Part shown: piece after piece, positions 4,930 to 63,798 of the stretch
How positions within the stretch are numbered: the first letter of the stretch is position 1
How the letters are laid out: each line of letters starts with the position of its first letter
Assembly (NCBI GenBank): GCA_903944345.1
Contig: CAJARJ010000005.1
Span: forward strand, 7,890-71,889
Length of the DNA: 64,000 bases
Direction of reading: 5' to 3'
Source: Candidatus Omnitrophota bacterium
GTDB taxonomy: Bacteria > Omnitrophota > Gorgyraeia > Zapsychrales > Fredricksoniimonadaceae
Translations under genes and position numbers: made by a program
Notes under the pieces: generated by a model
What the model was told of the DNA's origin: nothing
Database searches by the model: none
The model's input: only the letters and a program-made list of their open reading frames with translations

Positions 4930-6017
4930 AAATTGTTGCTGTTAATCTCTACAATGTTTCCTGTGGCTTGCGTAAACCGTTTACGTCCCGCGGAGTGGTT
5001 ACCAGTCAGCGGCATTCCATTCTGGTTCAGTTTATAGGTGATAACGGGGAAATGGGCTTTGGTGAGGCATCACCCCTTGAGGGCTTCAGTCCAGAATCCC
5101 TGAAAAAGGCCCGCCATCAAATGAGCCTCCTAGCCAAAGAATGGAAGAATCGTAATGTCCCCTGTAAGGGCGAAGAGCTTGTTCTTTTTTTACGGTCGGC
5201 CTTTGACAGGACTGTTAACGCTTCCTCGGTCATTTTCGCCTTCGAATCTGCCGCCATAACAATGGTCGCCCGCTTCAAAAATGTTGCGCCTTGCGAAATT
5301 TTGCATGCCGGGAGCACCCGTTCCGTCCCTTCAGCCGGTCTTTTGCAAGGAAGTGTTAGTGAAGTGGTCGATGAGGCAAGACTCCTCAAGTCTCGTGGAT
5401 ATTCTGTCTTCAAACTGAAAGTCGGGTCAAGAAATATTCCTCTTGATGTCCAAAAAGTTGAAGAAACAAAGTTGGCTATCGGCCCTCAGGGACGGCTGCG
5501 ACTTGACGCGGATCGTTCCTGGCATTTTGACGAAGCTCTGCTATTTGCCCAAAACATTGGTAAGAACCAGATCGAGTTTATTGAAGATCCCTGTTTATCG
5601 CAAGATCAGTGGAACAGGTTTGTCCGTTTGTCTGATATCCCGGTTGCTGCCGATGAGTTTTTGTCCGGTACGGATAATTTGTCGCGGAAGAACATGGAAA
5701 CCATCCCGTACCTGATTATTAAACCCACTGTGTGCGGCGGAGTCATTGCTGCGTTACAGTTGATGAAAAAAGCTGCGCAGAACGGACAAAAAGTTATCAT
5801 CAGCTCTTCTTTTGAGTCGGGTGTAGGCTTAAGGATGCTGGCCAATCTGGGCTGTTTATCCGGTCAGGCGGCGGGTCTTGGCACCAGTGAATGGCTGCAA
5901 CAAGACATTCTTTCACAGCCGCTGGTTGCATCCGGGGGAATAATCACAGTCCCGGCGCTGGCTCTGAATGTTGACCTTTTTAGAACTGACATCAAGGCAT
6001 CTTTGGCTACTTTCTGA
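4917..6017 (+). CDS. menC: o-Succinylbenzoate synthase (enolase superfamily, MLE subgroup)
   Basis: KLKVG, LRLDADRSW, IEDP and IIKP catalytic motifs of OSBS/MenC; sits between menA and a menE-like gene. Confidence 0.75.
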   Translation: MDTIKIVAVNLYNVSCGLRKPFTSRGVVTSQRHSILVQFIGDNGEMGFGEASPLEGFSPESLKKARHQMSLLAKEWKNRNVPCKGEELVLFLRSAFDRTVNASSVIFAFESAAITMVARFKNVAPCEILHAGSTRSVPSAGLLQGSVSEVVDEARLLKSRGYSVFKLKVGSRNIPLDVQKVEETKLAIGPQGRLRLDADRSWHFDEALLFAQNIGKNQIEFIEDPCLSQDQWNRFVRLSDIPVAADEFLSGTDNLSRKNMETIPYLIIKPTVCGGVIAALQLMKKAAQNGQKVIISSSFESGVGLRMLANLGCLSGQAAGLGTSEWLQQDILSQPLVASGGIITVPALALNVDLFRTDIKASLATF

Positions 6018-6895
6018 TGGATTGTCCTGTTGCCTTTCATGCCCGGGAGAATCCGGATCGTATCGCCCTTTTATGGGGAAAGCGCAGCCTTTCCTGGGGG
6101 AATCTCAATGACTATGTTCATGGGACTTGCAGGGCGCTGAAAGAAATCGGCGTCAGGCCCAACAACCGCTTCGCTGTTTTGTCTACCAACACCCTTGAAA
6201 CGATTATTATACTTCTTTCTGCCTGGCGGGCAGGCGCGTCTGTTCTGGTTCTTGATCCGGCCTTATCTTTGTCTATCGGACGAAAAATTCTTGACCAGTA
6301 TAAAATTGACCTGCTTTTTTCTGATACCAAAGATTATAAGGCCTTTTCAGGACAACGCCGGACAGTCATTCTCAACAAGGTTATTTGCAAACATAACGAT
6401 TTATTCCTTTCCCATAAATTGCCCGGTATTAATCCCGATTCCAGCGGTCTGCTGCTTGTTCGTAATGCCGCCCAGGAACTGGCTGCATACAACACGGTCG
6501 ATTATGGACAACTGTTTCATTGTGCCGAAGAAGATAATCAAAAGACTGCCTATGGATCCACAAAAATCTGGTTATTACCGTTCCCTTTGCATCATATATG
6601 GGGACAACGAATTCTTTTCAGAGGGCTGGCTGGCGGGGGAGCAATTGTTTTGCCGGAATTCGAGTCGGACTTTCTTAACGATCCCGCACAATTTTCCATA
6701 ACACTCGGATTCTATAAAATTACTCATATATTCTGCCCTTTAGTGCAGTTGGGTGAACTCGTTAGGAATTCGGCTGTTTTAGCTTCTTTACGCTGTCTGG
6801 ATGCCATTCTTGTTGAACAAGGATCGCCGGATTCCACGTTATTGGATAAAGCTTCCGGCCTTTCAATACCCTTAGTGGTCAGTATTAACGGATAG
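6017..6895 (+). CDS. MenE-like AMP-binding protein, truncated and degenerate (292 aa; P-loop lost, C-terminal domain absent)
   Basis: Aligns to the MenE N-terminal domain (LSWGNLNDYVHGTCRALKEIGV..., LPFPLHHIWGQ ~ LPLFHVSGQ) but TSGSTGxPK is replaced by NPDSSGLLLV; ends ~150 aa short, with only 119 nt before the next gene. Confidence 0.5.
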   Translation: MDCPVAFHARENPDRIALLWGKRSLSWGNLNDYVHGTCRALKEIGVRPNNRFAVLSTNTLETIIILLSAWRAGASVLVLDPALSLSIGRKILDQYKIDLLFSDTKDYKAFSGQRRTVILNKVICKHNDLFLSHKLPGINPDSSGLLLVRNAAQELAAYNTVDYGQLFHCAEEDNQKTAYGSTKIWLLPFPLHHIWGQRILFRGLAGGGAIVLPEFESDFLNDPAQFSITLGFYKITHIFCPLVQLGELVRNSAVLASLRCLDAILVEQGSPDSTLLDKASGLSIPLVVSING

Positions 6896-9049: not shown

Positions 9050-9188
9050 TGTAACAAATTTTTAAAAGGCTATGTGTTGAGCTCAGGAAGGTGAGGGAAG
9101 GGATAAACAGCCACGCATACCAACAAAGTTTTTGCTAAGTTACCAGGTGCCTAATTTGGGCACAATTATACTAAACAGGAGAGACAGG

Positions 9189-9548
9189 ATGAATTTGTAC
9201 GTCGGCAACCTTTCATATGAAGCAACAGAAGAAGATTTGCGTCAGGCTTTCAGCCAATTTGGAGCAATCGACAAGGTTTCCTTAATGAAAGACAAGATCA
9301 GCGGTCAGTCGAGAGGTTTTGCTTTTGTTGAAATGCCTTCGAAAGAAGAAGCCGAGGCTGCAATCGGTTCTCTTAACGGAAAAGATCTTAAAGGTCGTCC
9401 GATTACTGTGAACGAAGCTCGTCCTAAAACTGAAGGCGGCGAAAGACGCGGCGGTTTTGGTGGCGGACGTGGCGGTTTCGGTGGCGGCGGCGGTGGTTTT
9501 GGTGGCGGAAGAGATCATGGCAGACGCTCGGATCGCGATCGTTATTGA
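9189..9548 (+). CDS. Glycine-rich RNA-binding protein (single RRM plus RGG/GGF tail)
   Basis: RNP2 LYVGNL and RNP1 RGFAFVEM; C-terminal GGFGGGRGGFGGGGGGFGGGR; AGGAGAG RBS. Confidence 0.85.
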   Translation: MNLYVGNLSYEATEEDLRQAFSQFGAIDKVSLMKDKISGQSRGFAFVEMPSKEEAEAAIGSLNGKDLKGRPITVNEARPKTEGGERRGGFGGGRGGFGGGGGGFGGGRDHGRRSDRDRY

Positions 9549-28266: not shown

Positions 28267-30105
28267 ATGCGGCGCCAGTCGAAACGTCCTGGTTTTTACT
28301 GGGTCTATATCGTTCGCTGCCGATTGGGGACTTATTATGTTGGTTGCACTAATGATCTTGAAAAACGGATTAAACGGCATAATACGGGTCAAGGTGCAAA
28401 ATATTTAAGAGGCCGAGGCCCGGTTGAGCTTGTCTACAGAACAAAATGCCCAACCTTTGCTGCAGCCCTTCGTCTGGAATGGAAAATCAAACAGCTCTCA
28501 CATTCAGATAAAGAAAGATTGTTGTCGCAATATTCTGCTCAAGCAGCTTTAACTGCCAGACAAGATCCAAAATCGACGAATGCTGATAAAAGGAAAAATA
28601 TGAATGAAATTAACGAAAAAGAATTTCTCAGGCTTGCTTCCAAAGGTGGGCTTATTCCGGTATTTCGGGAGATCCCGGGCGACCTTGAGACGCCAGTTTC
28701 AGCCTATTTTAAAATCAGCAAGGCCAACAAATATTCGTTTCTGCTTGAATCTGTTGAAGGCGGAGAGAAACTGGCACGTTATTCTTTTCTGGCAGCAGCG
28801 CCAGAATGTGTTCTGGAGTCTAAAGGACGTGTGGCTAAAATTATTCGTTTTACAAAAAAAGGCCCTGTAGCCCATGCGGCTCCTTTTCGTGATTCACCAT
28901 TGGAAATCGTTCGGGAGTTGATTAGTAAGTATAATTATGTTAATATCTCAGGTCTTCCGGGTTTTAGTGGAGGATTTGTAGGCTATCTTGGCTATGATAT
29001 GGTTCGGTTCTTTGAGAATTTGCCAGAAAAAACTGAAGATGATCTTGGTTTACCTGATATGGTTCTGATGCTTGCCAAGGATTTACTGATCTTTGATCAT
29101 TTGCATCATACGATCAAAGTCATTAGCTGTACGGAGATAGACAGCCATGATGACCGATTAACAAAAATCCGTAAATTCAGGCAGGCCCATAAAAGAATCG
29201 CTAAAATGGTTGGTTTATTGTCTGCACCTTTACCAAAATTGAAACGTGCCAGACAAAAATCGTCCTCCGCAGAAGCCAAAGCTACTGCCGATTTGTCAAA
29301 AACGAAGTACGAGTCTATGGTCAGCCGGGCAAAAGAAGAAATTCGCTCGGGTGAAATTATACAAGTTGTTCTCTCTCAGCGTTTTAAGGTTGATTGTCCG
29401 ATTGATTCCATAGAACTTTATAGAACCCTTCGTAATCTTAATCCGTCACCGTATATGTATTTATTAAACCTTGACGGTCTCAATATTGTCGGTTCTTCTC
29501 CGGAATTACTTATGCGTTGCGAGAATGGCATTGTCGAAACTCGACCGATCGCAGGAACCAGACCTCGAGGGCATTCTCTGGAGGATGATCTAAGGCTCGA
29601 ACAAGAGCTTCTGAATGATCCTAAAGAACGGGCAGAACATGTCATGCTCGTTGATCTGGGACGCAATGATCTCGGGCGAGTCTGCCGGGAAGGCAGCGTC
29701 AGGGTCACTGATCTCATGTCTGTTGAACGTTTTTCACACGTTATGCATATTGTCTCCAACGTCCGTGGAGAATTGGCTGAAGGACAAGATGCCTTAAGCG
29801 CGCTTCAATCTGTTTTTCCGGCCGGGACTTTATCCGGAGCACCCAAAGTCCGCGCCATGCAGATTATCGAGGAATTGGAAACAAAACGCCGTGGCCCCTA
29901 TGGGGGGTGTGTTGGATATTTCAGCTTCTCCGGAAATATCGATACCTGTATAACGATTCGTACGATTGTTTTAAGCAAGGGGTCTGCTTATATTCAGGCT
30001 GGCGCGGGAATCGTGGCAGATTCAGATCCTTTTACCGAATACAACGAAACACTAAACAAGGCTAAAGCGCAAATAAAAGCGCTGCAATTGGCGCAACGGC
30101 GCTGA
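28267..30105 (+). CDS. trpE: In-frame fusion: N-terminal GIY-YIG (YhbQ/UPF0213-like) domain + anthranilate synthase component I (TrpE); internal ATG with own RBS at 28600
   Basis: Residues 8-90 YWVYIVRC..GTYYVGCTNDLEKRIKRHNTGQGAKYLRGRGPVELVY match YhbQ; from MNEINEKEFL: LLESVEGGEKLARYSF, PIAGTRPRG, GAGIVADSDP TrpE motifs; no stop between the domains. Confidence 0.75.
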   Translation: MRRQSKRPGFYWVYIVRCRLGTYYVGCTNDLEKRIKRHNTGQGAKYLRGRGPVELVYRTKCPTFAAALRLEWKIKQLSHSDKERLLSQYSAQAALTARQDPKSTNADKRKNMNEINEKEFLRLASKGGLIPVFREIPGDLETPVSAYFKISKANKYSFLLESVEGGEKLARYSFLAAAPECVLESKGRVAKIIRFTKKGPVAHAAPFRDSPLEIVRELISKYNYVNISGLPGFSGGFVGYLGYDMVRFFENLPEKTEDDLGLPDMVLMLAKDLLIFDHLHHTIKVISCTEIDSHDDRLTKIRKFRQAHKRIAKMVGLLSAPLPKLKRARQKSSSAEAKATADLSKTKYESMVSRAKEEIRSGEIIQVVLSQRFKVDCPIDSIELYRTLRNLNPSPYMYLLNLDGLNIVGSSPELLMRCENGIVETRPIAGTRPRGHSLEDDLRLEQELLNDPKERAEHVMLVDLGRNDLGRVCREGSVRVTDLMSVERFSHVMHIVSNVRGELAEGQDALSALQSVFPAGTLSGAPKVRAMQIIEELETKRRGPYGGCVGYFSFSGNIDTCITIRTIVLSKGSAYIQAGAGIVADSDPFTEYNETLNKAKAQIKALQLAQRR

Positions 30106-33070: not shown

Positions 33071-34963
33071 ATGTTCCGTTCAATAAAATATTTTGTCTCC
33101 CAGCATATTGCCTTCGATGAATTCTCTACCGGGCTCATTCGTTTCGGATACGCACGTGTCAAAACTGTTGCCCAGGAGGGGGAATACGCCATCCGCGGAG
33201 AAATCATTGACATCTTTCCTTCCGGATTCGATTCGCCGGTACGCATTGACAGTGAAGATGGTATTATCCGAAAAATCTTTTCCTTCCAGATAATCTCGGG
33301 GAAAAATGTCTGGGAACATGAAGCTGTCATAATTTTCCCGGTTAAAGGGCTTGCCCCGGATGAAGTTTTCCAGGAAGACATGCCGTTAACGCCTTTTGTG
33401 GATATCCGCAAGGGGGACTATGTTGTTCATAACCAGCATGGGATCGGTCGGTTTATCGGCCTCAAAGAGTTTGCGGTCGATCTAAAGCAAGTCGAGCATT
33501 TTGTAATTGAGTACCAAGGTGGAGATAAACTTTTTGTACCCCAGAAGGATCTTCATCTCGTCCAGAAATACATTGGCTTCACAAAAAAGCCCCCCCGTCT
33601 TTTCCGCCTTGGCTCCCGCGAATGGGAAAAGATCCGCAAGACAATAGAAAAACGACTCCAACGCCTTGCCTCAGAACTCCTTCACGTGCAGGCGTTGCGT
33701 AACAGCATGGTAGGGTTTGCCTGTACCAAAGACAATGAATGGCAGTCCGAATTCGAACAAACGTTTCCTTTTATTGAAACTCCGGATCAGAGTAAAGCTG
33801 CACTTGAAGTTAAGGCAGACATGGAATCCCCCCGACCAATGGATCGTTTGTTATGTGGCGATGTGGGATACGGAAAAACAGAAGTTGCCATGCGTGCAGC
33901 CTTCAAGGCTGTCATGAACGCAAAACAAGTCGCAATTCTGGTGCCGACAACAGTTCTGGCGGAACAGCATTATCTTAATTTTTCAAGGCGGATGAAGGAC
34001 TTTCCTGTGCGTATCGGCATGGTTTCCCGTTTCAGAAGCAAAAATGAACAAATTCATACCATTAAAGAAGCCGCTGCCGGAAAAGTGGATATTATTATCG
34101 GAACGCATCGCCTGCTTTCCAAAGATGTACACTTCAGGGATCTTGGGCTGATCATTATTGATGAAGAACAACGCTTTGGAGTAACAGCAAAAGAACGACT
34201 AAAACATATGAAGCTGTTATGCGATGTGTTAACAATGACCGCGACACCGATACCGCGCACGCTTTATATGGCTATGGTCAGTTGCCGTGACATGTCCGTC
34301 ATTTCCACCCCTCCGTCCAACCGGATTCCGGTTGCAACCGAAATCATCTGCTTTGATGAAGACACTATTCGTCTGGCCATTAAACGTGAACTGGCCCGCG
34401 GGGGACAGGTCTTCTTTCTTCATAATCATGTTGAAGACATTATTACTGTCGCAGGAAAGATCGCAAAACTTGTTCCTAAAGCTCGTCTTGGCATAGGTCA
34501 TGGGCAAATGCCGGGGAAAGACCTGGAAAATATCATGCTTGATTTTCTCAAAGGCGAGATTGATGTTTTAGTCTGTACGACTATAATAGAATCAGGTATA
34601 GATATTCCTAATGCCAATACGCTGATTGTTAATAAAGCTGACCGTTTCGGGTTATCCGATCTGCATCAACTGCGTGGACGTGTAGGACGTACAAATATAA
34701 AAGCCTATGCCTATTTCATAGTCCCGGACAGATCAATTTTATCCGGTGTCGCGCGCAAACGGATGGAAGTTTTACAGAAATTCAGCGATCTGGGTGCCGG
34801 ATTTCATATTGCATTCGAAGATCTTCAGATAAGAGGCGCTGGCAACCTCCTCGGGGAACAGCAGCACGGCTATATTTCCAATGTAGGCTTTGACCTTTAT
34901 TGCCGAATGTTAAAAGGATCAGTCGAAAATCTTAAAAAAGAAATGGCTCGCACCAATGCTTAA
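33071..34963 (+). CDS. mfd: Transcription-repair coupling factor Mfd, short form (D3-D4(RID)-D5-D6 only; lacks UvrB-homology D1a/D2/D1b and C-terminal D7)
   Basis: 630 aa; RNAP-interaction domain [17 protein letters not shown]...[15 protein letters not shown]; helicase motifs [24 protein letters not shown]; ends right after [13 protein letters not shown]; terminator upstream, so no N-terminal extension. Confidence 0.75.
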
Positions 34964-44436: not shown

Positions 44437-45319
44437 GTTCCCGGGATTTATTGCTGTTTTATTTTTGCTGATAGTGGCACTTGGTGTTTTCGGCATTATT
44501 ACAATGCACAAAACGCGCCTTTCACCCGGCGTCACCTTGCCTAAACCCAAAAGTGTGCCGCCTGGAAAAACAGTCAAGAAGATCGCAGCCCCTGTTGTAC
44601 CTAAGAAAATCAGGAAAGCCGGGGCAGTTCCTCAGACCGGAGTAATTGCAGTGGTTCTGGATGACTGGGGATACAATCGTTCCCATTGCCGCTCCCTGGC
44701 CAAAATCAAAGCCCCTATAGGAGTGGCCATTCTTCCTGGTCTTACATATTCCAAAGATGTAATTGCCTGCGCACTGGCCAGCGGTCATGAACCCATGCTG
44801 CATTTGCCTTTTGAGCCGCACCGCAGCAAGGAAATGTATACCGAAGATTACCTCTTAACCAGCGATGAATCAAATGAACAGACAAAAAAACGACTGGATA
44901 TGATTCTTTCCGAGATGAAAGGAGTCGTCGGGGTCAACAATCATACTGGTTCGAAAGGCACAGAAAACCCTGAACTGGTAAAACTTGTTTTGACAGAACT
45001 CAAACGGCGTAAACTGTTTTTTGTAGATAGTGTAACAACCCCTAACAGTGTCTGCGGCACAGTCGCCGCAAACCTCAAGATGCGTATTGGACGAAGAGAT
45101 GTTTTTCTGGACAACAAGAACGAACGCTCTGAAATTGAACGACAATTTTCCCGGGCCGCCAACATTGCCGAAGATACTGGCAGGGTTCTGGTCATAGGCC
45201 ACGACAGAGTTCTGACTCTACAAATTCTTCTGGAGCAAATTTCTAAACTTGAAGCCAGGGGGCTTCGCTTTATTCCCGTTTCGGAATATATAAGAAAATA
45301 TGAATATACTCGGAATTGA
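44411..45319 (+). CDS. Divergent polysaccharide deacetylase family protein (YibQ-like)
   Basis: N-terminal TM; VLDDWGYN and GVNNHTGS motifs typical of YibQ; downstream of ctpA as commonly seen. Confidence 0.7.
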   Translation: MVRQKQSGKFPGFIAVLFLLIVALGVFGIITMHKTRLSPGVTLPKPKSVPPGKTVKKIAAPVVPKKIRKAGAVPQTGVIAVVLDDWGYNRSHCRSLAKIKAPIGVAILPGLTYSKDVIACALASGHEPMLHLPFEPHRSKEMYTEDYLLTSDESNEQTKKRLDMILSEMKGVVGVNNHTGSKGTENPELVKLVLTELKRRKLFFVDSVTTPNSVCGTVAANLKMRIGRRDVFLDNKNERSEIERQFSRAANIAEDTGRVLVIGHDRVLTLQILLEQISKLEARGLRFIPVSEYIRKYEYTRN

Positions 45320-46259
45320 AACCTCCTGCGATGAAACCTCGGCAGCTGTTGTAACTGACGGCTCTGTTCTGCGTTCCAATATTGTTGCTTCCAGCCTTCC
45401 GGATCACCAGCGTTTTGGCGGAGTGATTCCGGAGATCGCTTCCAGGCGTCAACTGGAGTATATTTCCATTGTTGTCAATGAGGCCCTGAGCCATGCTGGC
45501 CTGCGCAAAGAAGACCTGGACGCAATAGCAGTTACTCTTAAACCGGGATTAATCGGATCCCTTCTGGTCGGTATATCCTTTGCCAAAGCCTTCAGTAAGG
45601 CTTTGGCAAAACCTTTTATCGGCGTCAATCATGTCCATGCACATATTTATGCCAACTGTTTGCGAAAAGCAGAAGCCTCTCGTGAGGCCGAACCTGTTTT
45701 ACCAGCTATCGGCCTGGCTGTTTCCGGCGGCCATTCCAGTCTTTATTTTATTCGTGATTTCCGCTCTTTCAAACTTATTGGTGAAACACGCGATGACGCA
45801 GCCGGGGAAGCATACGATAAAGTTGCCCGAATCCTTGGACTCGGTTATCCGGGTGGCCCGGTTATAGACAAGATCGCCCGTTCTGTAAAAAACAACACCT
45901 TGCGTTTCAAATGTGCCCAGCTTGAAGGAAGTTATGATTTCAGTTTCAGCGGCATCAAGACTGCCGTGCTTTACCATGTCCGCGAACATCATGTCCAGCC
46001 TGGGCCGGAAACGGATTGTGTTGTCGCAGCCTTCCAGGAAAGCGTCGTTGCTTCTCTTGTAGAAAAAAGCCTTCTGGCTTGCCGAAAGAAAAAAGTTGGA
46101 ACTCTGCTTGTGGGGGGAGGAGTTTCTGCCAATTCGGCACTCCGGTCGCTTTTATCCAGCCGCGCCCAACAAGAAGGAATCCGGGTTTTCTTTCCCCCGT
46201 TTGAACTTTGTACCGACAACGCTGCCATGATTGCCGGACTGGCATTTCATTATTATTGA
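45300..46259 (+). CDS. tsaD: tRNA N6-adenosine threonylcarbamoyltransferase
   Basis: MNILGIETSCDETSAAVV; Kae1/TsaD HxxH-less bacterial form; 319 aa. Confidence 0.9.
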   Translation: MNILGIETSCDETSAAVVTDGSVLRSNIVASSLPDHQRFGGVIPEIASRRQLEYISIVVNEALSHAGLRKEDLDAIAVTLKPGLIGSLLVGISFAKAFSKALAKPFIGVNHVHAHIYANCLRKAEASREAEPVLPAIGLAVSGGHSSLYFIRDFRSFKLIGETRDDAAGEAYDKVARILGLGYPGGPVIDKIARSVKNNTLRFKCAQLEGSYDFSFSGIKTAVLYHVREHHVQPGPETDCVVAAFQESVVASLVEKSLLACRKKKVGTLLVGGGVSANSALRSLLSSRAQQEGIRVFFPPFELCTDNAAMIAGLAFHYY

Positions 46260-46346
46260 CGGCAATTTGGGATTCTGTTATTCTGCCTGCATCGTTCAAG
46301 GCAAATCTTCCGTCATTATCACTATATATTCTTGCGGAGCTGTATT

Positions 46347-46889
46347 ATGGTTTTTGGCGAAAAAAGACCCGTCCCGACACAGACTCCCTTATCCGCGTCT
46401 CCTAAGACGGTGGAAATCAACGCCGAGATGCACGGTAGTCTTACCTTTAAAGAGAGTGTCGATCTTAAGATCAACGGTATTTTCAGCGGCTCTCTTGATA
46501 TTAAAGGCACTCTGACCGTAGGTGTTAACGCCCAGATCGAAGGAGATATCAACGGCGATAATGTTATTATTGCCGGACGCATCAAAGGAAATGTCAGTGT
46601 CACCCGAATGCTGACATTAATGCCTACCGCTGTACTGATCGGGGATATTTCTTCCCCTAAACTCAATATTGTTGAAGGTGCTGTTTTTCAAGGAACAAGC
46701 CGAATGCCGTCCGAAAGCTCCAACGAGTCAATGAACATAAGGGAACTGGCTTCTTATCTTGAACTGGATGAATCTGTTATTATTGAACTGGTGCGTGCAG
46801 GAAAAATTCCTGTTATCAAGGACGGTGACTCGCTTAAATTCGAGCGCCGGGAAATTGATAACTGGGCTGTATCAGGAATTGTCAAATGA
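46347..46889 (+). CDS. Bactofilin-domain protein fused to a C-terminal excisionase-family (HTH_17) DNA-binding domain (TTG 46332 alternative start)
   Basis: Beta-helical bactofilin repeats INGIFSGSLDIKGTLTVGVNAQIEGDINGDNVIIAGRIKGNVSV...; C-terminal MNIRELASYLELDESVIIELVRAGKIPVIKDGDSLKFERREIDNW. Confidence 0.7.
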   Translation: MVFGEKRPVPTQTPLSASPKTVEINAEMHGSLTFKESVDLKINGIFSGSLDIKGTLTVGVNAQIEGDINGDNVIIAGRIKGNVSVTRMLTLMPTAVLIGDISSPKLNIVEGAVFQGTSRMPSESSNESMNIRELASYLELDESVIIELVRAGKIPVIKDGDSLKFERREIDNWAVSGIVK

Positions 46890-47191
46890 CATTAAGCCCG
46901 TATGTTTCTGTTCGTGAGTCTGCTCAAATCCTCGGAGTAACCGATGGCCGTATCATGCAGTTAATTGAACAACGCAAATTGCAGGCCTACAGAATTGCCG
47001 GACAATATTTGCGTCTGAAACGCTCGGATGTCATGCAATTGAAAAATAGCGGGGACGTGGTGGCGGAAACAGTCAAGTTTCCTTATACTGCCCGGGAGCG
47101 TTTTCTGGACTTCCTGCTGTACAATGACTTTTATATTGCGGCCTTCCTGATCATCGGCGTTCTGATTCTTGTTGTTATGTTCTGGCGGTAG
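46886..47191 (+). CDS. Excisionase-family HTH DNA-binding protein with C-terminal transmembrane anchor
   Basis: ATG overlaps upstream stop (ATGA); VSVRESAQILGVTDGRIMQLIEQRKLQAYRIAGQYLRLKRSDV HTH; C-terminal FYIAAFLIIGVLILVVMFW helix. Confidence 0.6.
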   Translation: MTLSPYVSVRESAQILGVTDGRIMQLIEQRKLQAYRIAGQYLRLKRSDVMQLKNSGDVVAETVKFPYTARERFLDFLLYNDFYIAAFLIIGVLILVVMFWR

Positions 47192-47258
47192 TCAGGATTT
47201 CTCTTGAAAAACACCATTTTTTATCTTATTATAATCGCTCAAAAAGATAGCTATTGAT

Positions 47259-47331
47259 GCCGAGGTAGCTCAGTTGGTAGAGCAAGCGGTTCATACCCGC
47301 TATGTCGTGGGTTCGACTCCCCCCCTCGGTA
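47259..47331 (+). tRNA. tRNA with CAU anticodon (elongator Met-type or tRNA-Ile2 lysidine substrate); no encoded CCA
   Basis: Cloverleaf read by hand: acceptor GCCGAGG/CCTCGGT (G1-U72 wobble), D-arm GCTC-AGTTGGTA-GAGC, anticodon arm AGCGG-TTCATAC-CCGCT, T-arm GTGGG-TTCGACT-CCCCC (one mismatch), discriminator A; followed by T7. Confidence 0.8.
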
Positions 47332-47350
47332 TTTTTTTACTCCTGAAAAT

Positions 47351-48361
47351 ATGGCCTTGCCCTGCCTGCATCCATTAGCCCTTAAAACACTGTCATTTAT
47401 CAGAAACAAGAAACTTTTTATCAAGGGCGCAAGAGTCCTGATTGGCGTTTCCGGCGGGCCTGACTCTGTTGTGCTGTTTCATATTCTTAACTCACTCAAA
47501 CACGAACTCGGGATTCTTCTTAAAATTGCCCATTTTGACCACAAACTGCGTCAGAATTCTGCGGTTGACCTTCTTTTTGTCAAAACGCTGGCCAAACGCC
47601 TTGCTGTTCCATTTATTCATGGTCGAAGTAAAACTCCGTATGCCAGGACCGGATCAATCGAGGAGGCTGCTCGTGAACGTCGATACCGTTTCTTTCTGGA
47701 TGCGGCAGCTTCCTGGAAGGCAGATGCCGTAGCGTTGGGACACAACCGTGACGATCAGGCCGAAACAGTCCTGATGCGAATATTGCGCGGCACCGGAACC
47801 AGTGGTTTAAGAGCCATCCTGCCCGCACGATTGATAAACGGAAAACTTTTTGTGCGGCCCCTGCTTGAAGTGCCCAGATCCGAGATCGAAACTTACCTCT
47901 CAGAGAACAAACTTGAGTTCCTGACTGATCCAACTAACTGTTCGATGGATTTCTTTCGCAACCGCATCCGGCATCGAATCATCCCTTTTCTGGATAAGGA
48001 AAGCGGTCAGGATATCCGCTCCCATCTTGCCGCATTGGCTTTTTCTGCCGCTGATGAACAAGACCTCATTGACGAGAACCTTAAACCCGTCATCCGTTCT
48101 TATGCCAGATTCGAAAACAAAGCTGCAAAGATTAACCTGGCTGACTGGGGCAGCCTGCATCCGGCTCTTGGCCGGGCCTTACTCAGATATTGTATCGGTG
48201 AGGTGAAGGGAAATCTAAATTCCCTGACATTGAGCCATGTTCAGTCAATTGAAAATCTTATCAGAAATGGAGCCACAGGGAGCCAGACCCATCTTTGCGA
48301 TGGAGTGATAGTCAGGAAAAAGGCCAAATTCCTTCTTGTTATAACAGTCAAAAGACTATAA
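47351..48361 (+). CDS. tilS: tRNA(Ile)-lysidine synthetase
   Basis: PP-loop VLIGVSGGPDSVVL; 336 aa. Confidence 0.85.
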   Translation: MALPCLHPLALKTLSFIRNKKLFIKGARVLIGVSGGPDSVVLFHILNSLKHELGILLKIAHFDHKLRQNSAVDLLFVKTLAKRLAVPFIHGRSKTPYARTGSIEEAARERRYRFFLDAAASWKADAVALGHNRDDQAETVLMRILRGTGTSGLRAILPARLINGKLFVRPLLEVPRSEIETYLSENKLEFLTDPTNCSMDFFRNRIRHRIIPFLDKESGQDIRSHLAALAFSAADEQDLIDENLKPVIRSYARFENKAAKINLADWGSLHPALGRALLRYCIGEVKGNLNSLTLSHVQSIENLIRNGATGSQTHLCDGVIVRKKAKFLLVITVKRL

Positions 48362-62424: not shown

Positions 62425-63798
62425 TCAGAGGCCCTTGAACTCTACCGCAATTTTCTGAACCACATCTTTTGCGTCGCCAAAAATCATACGGGTATTATCG
62501 TAATAGAAAAGCTCGTTCTCCACTCCGGCAAAGCCGGTATTCATCGAACGCTTTATAACAAAAACCGTTTTAGCCTTGAACGTTTCAATAATGGGCATTC
62601 CGTATATCGGGGAGGCTTTGTCGGTCATTGCTGCCGGATTAACCGTGTCATTGGCACCAACCACAATACAGACATCCACCGAGTCCATAGTCGGATTGAT
62701 ATTATCCATTTCCACCAACTGCTCATAGGGAACATTAGCTTCAGCCAGAAGAACATTCATATGACCCGGCATGCGGCCGGCAACCGGATGAATGGCATAC
62801 TTGACATCGGCTCCGTTTTTCTGTAACAATTCTCCCAACTCACGGACAACATGCTGGGCTTGAGCGACCGCAAGTCCGTATCCAGGCACAATAACCACCG
62901 AGCGGGCGGCTTCTAGCACCAGAAACGCATCCTGGGCAGAAACAGATTTTATCTCGCCTTTAACCGTACCCGAAATCTTCTTCTTTGCTGTACTAAACCC
63001 GCTAAAAAGAACATTGGACAGGGAACGGTTCATGGCCTTGCACATGATTTGGGTAAGAATAATCCCGCTTGCTCCAACCAGAGTTCCCGTGACAATCAGA
63101 ATGCTGTTCATGATTACAAAACCGGAAGCGCAGGCAGCAAGACCGGAATAACTGTTGAGAAGCGAGATGACCACAGGCATATCGGCTCCGCCAATAGGAA
63201 TGACAGAAGTCACGCCCAAGAGGAGAGATAAAACAAGAATGCCAAGAAAGACAGGATAAGACTGCGCAGGATGCCAGCAGTATATCACTCCTGCCAGCAT
63301 TAAAAGGACAAGAAGACCAGTGTTAAACCACTTCTGACCATTAAAAAGAATAGGCTTGGCGGAAAAAACACCATTTAATTTCCCCCAGGCAATCAGCGAC
63401 CCGGTAAACGTTACGCCGCCAATAAGAACAGTCAAGAAAGTTGAAACAGAAGTAAACAAATCACTGCGTGGGGTGAAATGATATGTGCTCCAGGCAACAA
63501 GCAGGGAAGCCAGGCCGCCAAAACCGTTAAGAATAGCCACCATTTCCGGCATTTGCGTCATTGCAACTGCATACGCCCAGAAAACACCAATAATTGTTCC
63601 AATCACAGCCCCGATAAGAATCCACTCAAATTCAAGCCCCTGGTTAAAAAGGGTTGCTGTAACGGCAAGCAGCATCGCCACGGCGGAAAGCAAATTTCCA
63701 TTTCGCGCGCTGTCCGGATGCGACATCATTTTGAGTCCCCAAATAAAAGCCGCAGCGGATAAAATATAAATAATATTGATCCAGAAATACGAATTCAT
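62425..63798 (-). CDS. pntB: NAD(P) transhydrogenase subunit beta
   Basis: 457 aa on the - strand; multi-TM N-half and C-terminal NADP(H) domain GYGLAVAQAQH...AGRMPGHMNVLLAEA. Confidence 0.9.
   Translation of the reverse strand: MNSYFWINIIYILSAAAFIWGLKMMSHPDSARNGNLLSAVAMLLAVTATLFNQGLEFEWILIGAVIGTIIGVFWAYAVAMTQMPEMVAILNGFGGLASLLVAWSTYHFTPRSDLFTSVSTFLTVLIGGVTFTGSLIAWGKLNGVFSAKPILFNGQKWFNTGLLVLLMLAGVIYCWHPAQSYPVFLGILVLSLLLGVTSVIPIGGADMPVVISLLNSYSGLAACASGFVIMNSILIVTGTLVGASGIILTQIMCKAMNRSLSNVLFSGFSTAKKKISGTVKGEIKSVSAQDAFLVLEAARSVVIVPGYGLAVAQAQHVVRELGELLQKNGADVKYAIHPVAGRMPGHMNVLLAEANVPYEQLVEMDNINPTMDSVDVCIVVGANDTVNPAAMTDKASPIYGMPIIETFKAKTVFVIKRSMNTGFAGVENELFYYDNTRMIFGDAKDVVQKIAVEFKGL

Follow-up and report, generated by a model that had tools for sequence, protein, structure and literature searches.

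Introduction

What might a bacterial cytoskeletal polymer do with a domain of the winged helix-turn-helix type (wHTH) at the end of its subunits, when the next gene encodes a membrane-anchored protein carrying a second copy of the same fold? This question is raised by two short genes, called here ORF1 and ORF2 (for open reading frame, ORF), that lie in a 64,000-nucleotide stretch of DNA from a Candidatus Omnitrophota bacterium (GenBank assembly GCA_903944345.1, contig CAJARJ010000005.1, positions 7,890 to 71,889 of the forward strand; below, the window). Omnitrophota are mostly ultra-small uncultured bacteria. An earlier note, made from the sequence alone, had described ORF1 as a bactofilin joined to a C-terminal helix-turn-helix (HTH) domain of the HTH_17 family and ORF2 as a homologous HTH_17 domain with a membrane anchor, and had suggested that together they tether a DNA site to a filament, to the membrane or to both. 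The analysis presented here indicates that the bactofilin-wHTH protein and its tail-anchored wHTH neighbour constitute a real and strongly conserved architecture that is apparently undescribed.

Bactofilins are widespread as scaffolds, and their known clients are few. The links between bactofilins and DNA that have come to light so far are either indirect, via PadC and ParB in Myxococcus, or regulatory, via BacR in Bacillus. The literature search found no description of a bactofilin-HTH fusion, nor of bactofilins in Omnitrophota, in agreement with the earlier note, which knew of no such architecture. The more than 1000 members that are present in public databases carry automatic annotations only, such as 'polymer-forming cytoskeletal protein' and 'excisionase family DNA binding protein', and a protein identical to ORF2 has already been deposited (P0121). 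The pair offers a testable candidate for chromosome or envelope organisation in Omnitrophota, as well as a natural experiment in wHTH divergence with one basic and one acidic copy, and the small sizes of its products (180 and 101 residues) suit heterologous expression, in vitro reconstitution and structure determination.

Architecture of the pair

ORF1 matches the Pfam family Bactofilin (PF04519, DUF583) with 77.8 bits where 27.9 are required (E = 7.9e-22; residues 24-118, profile positions 5-97 of 98). With HTH_17 (PF12728; residues 129-173) it barely passes, at 27.6 bits for a cut-off of 27, and its score with TIGR01764, 28.1 bits, falls just under the cut-off of 28.8. Both Pfam domains lie in one reading frame, with no frameshift within the fusion, and the searches with profile hidden Markov models (HMMs) bear out this part of the earlier description. 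The AlphaFold2 (AF2) model of ORF1, built on an alignment of 92 sequences and having a mean predicted local distance difference test score (pLDDT) of 83, consists of disordered residues 1-19, a succession of strands from residue 20 to residue 115 (pLDDT 88-96), a short linker and a wHTH at residues 123-175. Compared with the Protein Data Bank by Foldseek, the predicted core retrieves 6rib, 6ria and 2n3d with probability 1.0 and template modelling scores (TM-scores, normalised to the target) of 0.73-0.79; the bactofilin of T. thermophilus (6rib) gives 0.79, and 2n3d is BacA of Caulobacter. F114 of ORF1 is aligned with F105 of the T. thermophilus protein and F130 of Caulobacter BacA, i.e. with the Phe of the polymerisation interface, and this position is occupied by Phe in 205 of 260 family members and by Leu, Ile, Val or Met in 55, a hydrophobic residue in all. 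In Caulobacter BacA, the F130R replacement abolishes polymerisation (PMC12448750). Judged by HMM match, predicted fold and interface residue, ORF1 is a true bactofilin.

The N-terminus of ORF1 resembles bactofilins' membrane-targeting sequence (MTS), for which the consensus MFSKKKK has been described and which in Caulobacter BacA reads MFSKQAKS, with M1, K4 and K7 as key residues (PMC12448750). The ORF1 family shares the motif M-A-[FL]-x-x-[KR]-[KR] and has two to four Lys or Arg within the first eight residues in 257 of 260 members; at least one distant relative opens with MFKRKPK. This likeness is one of character, not of identity, and only from it do we infer that the N-terminus serves as a membrane-targeting peptide. 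At the other end of the β-helix, a linker of 4-24 residues (median 11 in the family) leads to the wHTH.

For comparison, GTDB was scanned with one genome per species, which gave 149 genomes with a relative and 80 loci that were kept for context analysis. Together with six distant loci (L081-L086) these form the 86 related loci; counts out of 81 and 87 below are those of the 80 scan loci and the 86 related loci, respectively, with the window added.

ORF2 follows on the same strand and, as stated earlier, is translationally coupled by an ATGA overlap (46886-46889), which was read directly from the sequence and in which the stop codon of ORF1 (46887-46889) shares two nucleotides with the start codon of ORF2 (46886-46888). 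The same 4-nt overlap is present in 42 of 81 loci, and every gap between the two genes measures at most 120 nt. ORF2 scores 31.1 bits with HTH_17 and 37.4 bits with TIGR01764 ('excise'), against the cut-offs of 27 and 28.8. Its AF2 model (pLDDT 77.5) has a wHTH at residues 6-55, a linker, a helix at residues 69-79 and a terminal helix at residues 81-99. The profile-profile comparison by hhalign supports homology between the two wHTHs (probability 94%, E = 1e-7, 22% identity), which are therefore considered paralogous. In both proteins the predicted topology is that of a winged helix, α1-α2-β-β-α3 (in ORF1, helices 131-138, 142-151 and 167-175 and strands 157-159 and 162-166), with Foldseek probability 1.0 to RdfS, BldC, Pukovnik Xis and RacA. 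The ORF1 domain matches the RdfS excisionase, BldC, Pukovnik Xis, RacA and CbpM; that of ORF2 is closest to Pukovnik Xis (30% identity, TM-score 0.84), followed by BldC and RacA, and also matches CbpM. The two HTH peptides that had been quoted in the earlier note are exact.

The best-conserved part of ORF2 is its juxtamembrane motif, which is kept even where ORF1 is 36-46% identical and the length of the linker differs. AF2 predicts it as a helix (residues 69-79, pLDDT 85-95), and it is a candidate for either a bactofilin-docking peptide or an interfacial helix. The single C-terminal transmembrane helix that had been noticed earlier is evident from hydropathy: the last 19-residue Kyte-Doolittle window, which ends one residue before the C-terminus, reaches 2.81, and the median of the best window over 81 homologues is 2.47. 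In the homologues inspected, the tail-anchor window ends 0-2 residues from the C-terminus, with the exception of one truncated copy. That copy (L047, positions 6516-6707 of a 1.29-Mb contig), cut to 63 residues and without the tail anchor, is the sole exception of the 81 loci and is probably due to an assembly frameshift.

Distribution and conservation

A search with the single ORF1 sequence returned 281 homologues, of which the best 120 measure 170-193 residues, carry nearly all both Pfam domains and, wherever named, belong to Omnitrophica or Omnitrophota. An exhaustive search of 1.84 billion representatives by HMM yielded only about 25 full-length bactofilin-wHTH clusters at 50% identity, well separated from some 24,000 ordinary bactofilins, and the profile of divergent members yielded 1088 clusters at 90% identity; among the top 120 of these, all have both domains and every name is Omnitrophota. 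The 80 scan loci likewise come from metagenome-assembled genomes (MAGs) of Omnitrophota, some of them with generic labels. The co-occurrence of the two genes is complete, as an ORF2 homologue lies directly 3′ of ORF1 in 80/80 scan loci and 86/86 related loci (87/87 including the window). Over the 87 loci, ORF1 has 168-184 residues and ORF2 97-132, the truncated copy apart; within the 81, ORF2 is confined to 99-102 residues with the same exception.

Not only the pairing but also the position of the pair is conserved. The tsaD gene lies upstream in 78 of the 80 scan loci, nearly always in a ctpA-tsaD context, and the six distant loci, with ORF1 36-46% identical to that of the window, keep the order ctpA-(deacetylase)-tsaD-MgtC-ORF1-ORF2. 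Median identity to the window proteins is 55% for ORF1 and 52% for ORF2, compared with 61-62% for tsaD and ctpA and 40-49% for tilS and folP. In an alignment of the window with its 18 closest relatives, the sole conserved block upstream of the pair is TTGAC-N17-TGTTATAAA, in which nothing that could serve as an operator is conserved apart from the -35 box and the extended -10 box. On this comparative evidence, the pair is a vertically inherited two-gene core operon with its own promoter that extends through the whole phylum Omnitrophota; it is regarded as a core operon and not as a mobile element because of the fixed housekeeping synteny, the phylum-wide pairing and the conserved promoter. Conservation at about the level of tsaD and phylum-wide fixation at a housekeeping locus suggest, therefore, that the pair has an important, possibly essential, role in the biology of the cell.

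Another explanation would make the HTH_17 genes a remnant of a mobile element: they would be the excisionases of a prophage or integrative element that had inserted beside a tRNA gene, or else parts of a MAD1-like defence system. Weak matches to excisionase PHROGs and to MADS MAD1 and the tRNA gene directly downstream would fit this. However, the scores are far under the family cut-offs, the housekeeping block gatAB-ctpA-tsaD ... tilS-ftsH-folP contains no integrase or mobile gene, and the syntenic position is kept across the phylum in the 86 related loci. The absence of an integrase or mobile context speaks against an excisionase system, and synteny effectively refutes the remnant as such, to which we attach next to no probability. 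Two family assignments were considered and discarded: MADS MAD1 (NF047737; 39.2 and 13.3 bits where 80 are required, 18-22 bits with PADLOC, no defence genes nearby) and magnetosome MamR (NF040990; 18.5 bits against a cut-off of 100).

Some variation around the pair was also observed. In most other Omnitrophota, a gene for an MgtC-family membrane protein (PF02308) is located between tsaD and the ORF1 homologue; this gene is absent from the clade of the window and is present in L081-L086 and in those of L019-L080 that have a gap of ~500 nt after tsaD. AIRC/Ni_insertion genes are often found 3′ of ORF2 in other Omnitrophota. One MAG, nDJH2bin18, holds two complete syntenic blocks including tsaD (L005 and L021), with ORF1 68% and 55% identical to that of the window; a mixed bin of two Omnitrophota genomes is likelier here than paralogy, because the flanking genes are duplicated too.

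Opposite divergence of the two winged helices

Whether these domains could bind DNA was judged from their charge and from the residues at positions that contact DNA in related proteins. The ORF1 wHTH is acidic, with a median net charge of -3 (n = 260, range -12 to +2; -4 in another computation) and a negative value in ~90% of the members, as compared with +6 for BldC, +4 to +5 for Pukovnik Xis and +7 to +8 for a standalone HTH_17 protein of Omnitrophota. Residues were mapped onto the BldC sequence, and all the residue numbers of PMC5859096 that were checked agreed with it. In BldC, the contacts to DNA are made by K26, T27, T29, R30, W31, K33, H46, R47 and R48 (PMC5859096), and in RacA the R19A replacement abolishes DNA binding (bioRxiv 10.64898/2026.03.06.710092). 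The position of BldC R30 and RacA R19 is held in ORF1 by E147 and is Glu or Asp in 214/260 members and Lys in 7/260; the equivalents of BldC R22 and R50 are Glu in 248/260 and Glu or Asp in 246/260, respectively. The recognition-helix positions 142-146 vary, as do the equivalents of BldC K26, T27 and T29, and the wing positions that correspond to BldC R41 and R48 are Lys or Arg in ~90% of homologues. A basic DNA-contact surface, composed of Arg or Lys of the recognition helix and a basic wing, is not found in the ORF1 domain, which accordingly looks unsuited to canonical DNA binding and has probably been turned into a protein adaptor.

These data bear directly on the possibility that both wHTHs bind DNA and that the polymer is itself a nucleoid-associated or centromere-binding cytoskeleton, with wHTHs paired at each tail-to-tail subunit interface and ORF2 acting as a second membrane tether. 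The nearest structures, Xis, RdfS, BldC and RacA, without exception belong to proteins that bind DNA and act in oligomeric form; both domains exceed the HTH_17 threshold, that of ORF1 barely; the two basic wing positions are retained; and the short linker would join two domains at the C-C interfaces. Against this stand the negative charge of the ORF1 domain, the charge reversal at the equivalents of BldC R22, R30 and R50, the unconserved recognition helix and the TIGR01764 score below cut-off, and we hold such a DNA-binding filament to be improbable.

The ORF2 wHTH has diverged in the opposite direction. Its median net charge is +2, residues R10, E11, Y35, I37, A38 and R43 do not vary at all and K22, M24 and K45 hardly do, and both the recognition helix and a basic wing (R36, R43, K45, R46) are conserved; the equivalent of R30 is Lys or Arg in 5/6 distant lineages. 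By its residues, the ORF2 HTH is a credible DNA binder. The simplest form of the tether proposed in the earlier note, with DNA bound by the filament as such, is thus disfavoured because the ORF1 wHTH is acidic, has Glu or Asp at the position of Arg30 and varies in its recognition helix. A link between DNA, membrane and filament is still plausible, but it would run through ORF2.

Other HTH_17 proteins were encountered alongside. The search of representatives contained two proteins with tandem HTH_17 domains, P0199 (479 residues, ~8 domains) and P0181 (231 residues, 3 domains), and a basic 60-residue standalone HTH_17 protein in an Omnitrophota genome (L082, 9798-9980) matches the ORF1-HTH profile with 51 bits; it is possibly a relative of the ancestral free domain.

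A possible DNA-membrane tether or protein adaptor

The reading that we favour, with a likelihood somewhat short of even, is that the polymer gathers tail-anchored ORF2 molecules by way of the paralogous wHTHs and so forms a multivalent tether between DNA and membrane. Along the cytoplasmic side of the membrane, ORF1 would polymerise into bactofilin filaments that have no polarity, and its wHTH, acidic and with the DNA-reading residues lost, would have become a docking module for the co-translated and more basic wHTH of ORF2, whose juxtamembrane motif may dock on the β-helix too. Many membrane-anchored ORF2 wHTHs would be clustered by a filament into a multivalent platform, and this platform would keep DNA at the membrane, either the nucleoid or some particular region of the chromosome. 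The architecture and the predicted folds, the interface Phe, the MTS-like N-terminus, the obligate pairing, the core-gene behaviour and the opposite divergence of the two wHTHs are the points that support such a tether.

A number of observations weigh against it. Everything beyond the architecture of the pair is inferred, and how the domains of ORF1 are oriented to one another in its AF2 model is uncertain (predicted template modelling score 0.58, linker pLDDT 64). In the clade of the window, the equivalent of R30 in ORF2 is not basic, being Q25 in the window and Asp in 59/81 loci, and the net charge of the domain is +2 only, compared with +4 to +8 for proven DNA binders. The search of the 64-kb window for dispersed or inverted repeats that might be binding sites gave only short, chance-like matches, the inverted-repeat pair that spans the locus (I1) being no more than 70% complementary, and the sequences upstream of the operon in the window and its 18 relatives showed no conserved site that could be a candidate for binding. 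The charges of the two wHTHs do not covary significantly over 80 species (rho = 0.18, p = 0.11), and the mirror-tree partial correlations between ORF1 and ORF2 domains (0.06-0.50) are no higher than those of the ctpA/tsaD controls (0.03-0.52).

The main competitor of the tether is a protein-only adaptor, in which neither wHTH binds nucleic acid and in which the wHTHs, the juxtamembrane motif or both couple the polymer to an integral-membrane partner. It would serve envelope growth, cell shape or division, in the manner of BacA-PbpC, BacA-LmdC and CcmA-Csd5/7. It would account for the acidic ORF1 wHTH without contact residues and for the Asp or Gln at the key Arg position of ORF2 in the clade of the window; the MerR-like fold is a protein-binding module in CbpM (the 3ucs match); genes related to the envelope are located nearby, namely ctpA, the divergent polysaccharide deacetylase and ftsH; and the combination of a bactofilin with a membrane-protein partner is a recurrent one (PMC13649987; for PbpC, PMC12448750). 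On the other hand, ORF2 has a periplasmic part of 0-2 residues and cannot itself, for this reason, reach the cell wall; its basic wing is conserved, with Lys or Arg at the R30 position in the distant lineages; and no envelope enzyme is consistently co-encoded 3′ of the pair in the 86 related loci. On balance, we consider the adaptor somewhat less likely than the tether.

RodZ, which has an HTH and a transmembrane segment, reportedly binds MreB by its cytoplasmic HTH and may be regarded as an architectural analogue of ORF2 under the adaptor explanation, being a membrane-anchored HTH that contacts a filament and not DNA. It differs from ORF2 in its XRE-type HTH, its N-in bitopic topology, its large periplasmic domain and its actin-like partner, and the two are not homologous.

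To return to the tether, its boldest form would be a dedicated minimal 'membrane kinetochore', in which a wHTH-capturing bactofilin polymer and its tail-anchored paralogue fasten the chromosome, via its origin or as bulk nucleoid, to the membrane. We propose this form speculatively, as an idea that is doubtful in its present shape. If true, it would represent cytoskeleton-based DNA anchoring made from parts not previously seen together, and the first bactofilin wired directly to a nucleic-acid-binding fold without a separate adaptor.

Comparison with known systems

Canonical bactofilins, such as Caulobacter BacA and T. thermophilus Bac, are similar to ORF1 in the β-helix, the interface Phe and the adjacent gene for a membrane protein, and the N-terminal peptide of ORF1, which is short, basic and hydrophobic, bears a likeness to their MTS. 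Unlike them, ORF1 has a folded wHTH in place of the C-terminal tail, which in them is usually short and disordered, and the partner that is encoded next to it carries a paralogue of its own wHTH.

The RacA/RocS/RicO proteins of Firmicutes keep origins at the membrane by means of a MerR-type wHTH, a coiled coil that self-associates and a membrane anchor (bioRxiv 10.64898/2026.03.06.710092), and thus contain the same three modules as the pair, i.e. wHTH, self-association and membrane anchor. Foldseek compares RacA (5i44) to both wHTHs with probability 1.0 and a TM-score of ~0.6. In the Omnitrophota pair, however, these modules are distributed over two proteins, with a bactofilin for the coiled coil and a transmembrane tail anchor for the amphipathic helix or DivIVA. 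The essential Arg (R19 in RacA, R18 in RicO) corresponds to Glu or Asp in ORF1 and to Gln or Asp in ORF2 of the window clade, and neither AF2 model contains a coiled coil. The pair is therefore not a member of this family, as it lacks both the coiled coil and the amphipathic helix and does not conserve the key Arg in the clade; by analogy, it may nevertheless work like it.

In M. xanthus, the bactofilins BacNOP position the ParABS system via the adaptor PadC (PMC5703909). This case resembles the pair in that a bactofilin scaffold is linked to chromosome organisation by the fold of a DNA-binding protein. PadC is a separate, soluble, ParB-like adaptor, and the scaffold is cytoplasmic and subpolar, whereas the pair has a wHTH in cis, a membrane-anchored paralogue and no ParB-like domain.

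BacR (YhbD, DUF4004) of B. subtilis is an HTH protein encoded in the operon of the bactofilins BacE and BacF, which bind it near the HTH, weaken its DNA binding and retain it at the membrane (PMC13649987). BacR is a transcription factor, soluble and dimeric, whose C-terminal part is DUF4004, and has no fusion, transmembrane anchor or paralogous pair. The Omnitrophota fusion is possibly a 'Rosetta-stone' echo of the bactofilin-HTH partnership in Bacillus and would, as such, lend independent support to a general partnership of this kind. A switch of the BacR type may also be considered for the pair itself. ORF2 would in that case be a membrane-tethered transcription factor, its access to DNA being gated by the bactofilin, with the acidic ORF1 wHTH as a decoy or competitor or with the filament sequestering ORF2, and expression would be coupled to the state of the membrane or the cytoskeleton. 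That a DNA-binding domain should meet competition from its acidic paralogue is plausible, and the operon layout and stoichiometric co-expression fit as well. Yet the operon's own promoter shows no operator-like conserved element besides its two boxes, and ORF2 is permanently tail-anchored, with no release mechanism evident; to us such a switch appears a long shot.

The wHTH fold of BldC forms head-to-tail oligomers on DNA (PMC5859096). BldC, Xis and RdfS share with the pair the fold and its topology, α1-α2-β1-β2-α3, and are the best structural matches to both domains. BldC and Xis are free and strongly basic (+4 to +6) and are linked to recombination or transcription; the pair differs from BldC, Xis and RdfS in consisting of one acidic, polymer-fused wHTH and one tail-anchored wHTH, with no integrase.

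Gene calls, promoter and neighbourhood

The features of the locus are collected in Table 1. In the ORF list that accompanied the earlier note, ORF1 began at TTG 46332. We discarded this start in favour of ATG 46347 (MVFGEKRP...), because the homologues all begin with the N-terminal family motif at that point and because the GGAG of a ribosome-binding site (RBS) precedes it by 7 nt; ATG 46347 is thus almost certainly the true start.

Table 1. Coordinates of the features of the ORF1-ORF2 locus in the window
Feature	Position	Strand	Basis or remark
Own sigma-70-type promoter, TTGACG - 17 nt - (TG)TATTCT	46256..46284	+	Consensus scan, 9/12 matches; extended -10 TG
RBS of ORF1, GGAG, 7 nt 5′ of ATG	46336..46339	+	Direct reading
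ORF1, bactofilin-wHTH fusion, 180 aa	46347..46889	+	Stop codon within coordinates
ORF1 N-terminal MVFGEKRP (residues 1-8), MTS-like, then disordered spacer to residue 19	46347..46370	+	Family motif; pLDDT ~50
ORF1 bactofilin β-helix core, residues 20-118, including Phe114 (nt 46686-46688)	46404..46700	+	AF2, Foldseek
ORF1 C-terminal wHTH, residues 123-175, Xis/BldC/MerR-type, acidic	46713..46871	+	AF2, Foldseek, HMM
RBS of ORF2, AGGAA, 7 nt 5′ of ATG, within the 3′ end of ORF1	46874..46878	+	Direct reading
ORF2, tail-anchored wHTH protein, 101 aa	46886..47191	+	Stop codon within coordinates
ORF2 wHTH, residues 6-55, paralogue of the ORF1 wHTH	46901..47050	+	hhalign, Foldseek
ORF2 juxtamembrane segment YTARERFLDFLLYNDFY, residues 67-83, phylum-wide motif DF[FL]Y[FY]NDFY	47084..47134	+	Conservation, AF2
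ORF2 C-terminal transmembrane tail anchor IAAFLIIGVLILVVMFW, residues 84-100	47135..47185	+	Hydropathy, AF2; one residue follows

The pair lies between tsaD (45300-46259) and a tRNA gene with anticodon CAU (47258-47332), followed by tilS (47351-48361), as had been indicated earlier. The gene order is gatA, gatB, ctpA (S41 protease), divergent polysaccharide deacetylase, tsaD, the pair, tRNA(CAU), tilS, ftsH, folP, cdaA and pdxJ, the genes that flank the pair in the window all being housekeeping genes. The stop codon TGA of tsaD (46257-46259) falls inside the -35 hexamer TTGACG of the pair (46256-46261), an arrangement that is kept in the closest relatives. Rfam detects no structured RNA other than the tRNA. 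This tRNA is either an elongator tRNA-Met or a lysidine-modified tRNA-Ile2; it has a promoter-like site of its own (TTGAAA-17-TATTAT, 47204-47232), and its CCA end is not encoded. A tRNA with CAU anticodon is present just 3′ of the ORF2 homologue in 60/81 loci, even where tilS is kilobases away, and is therefore syntenic with the pair and not with tilS.

Other features of the window

The GC content of the window is ~0.43-0.49, with no switch of skew. Strand bias is extreme: in positions 1-62420, all annotated ORFs of at least 150 residues read along the + strand, and a sizeable minus-strand gene that matches Pfam is first met with pntB (62425-63798); the other minus-strand ORFs listed overlap genes of the + strand. 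An ORF for an AMP-binding (MenE-like) protein (6017-6895, +), which lies downstream of genes like UbiA and MenC, has 292 residues only and may be truncated or frameshifted. The ORF at 33071-34963 (+) encodes an Mfd-like protein (UvrB_inter, CarD_TRCF_RID, DEAD and Helicase_C) of 630 residues, about half the usual length of Mfd. A TrpE-like ORF (Anth_synt_I_N and Chorismate_bind; 28267-30105, +) has a GIY-YIG nuclease domain at its N-terminus (residues 11-80) and is either an unusual fusion or the result of a mis-set start that joins two genes. Finally, an RRM-type RNA-binding protein (9132-9548, +) ends in a glycine-rich RGG/GGF tail that is coded by three 21-nt tandem repeats at 9448-9509.

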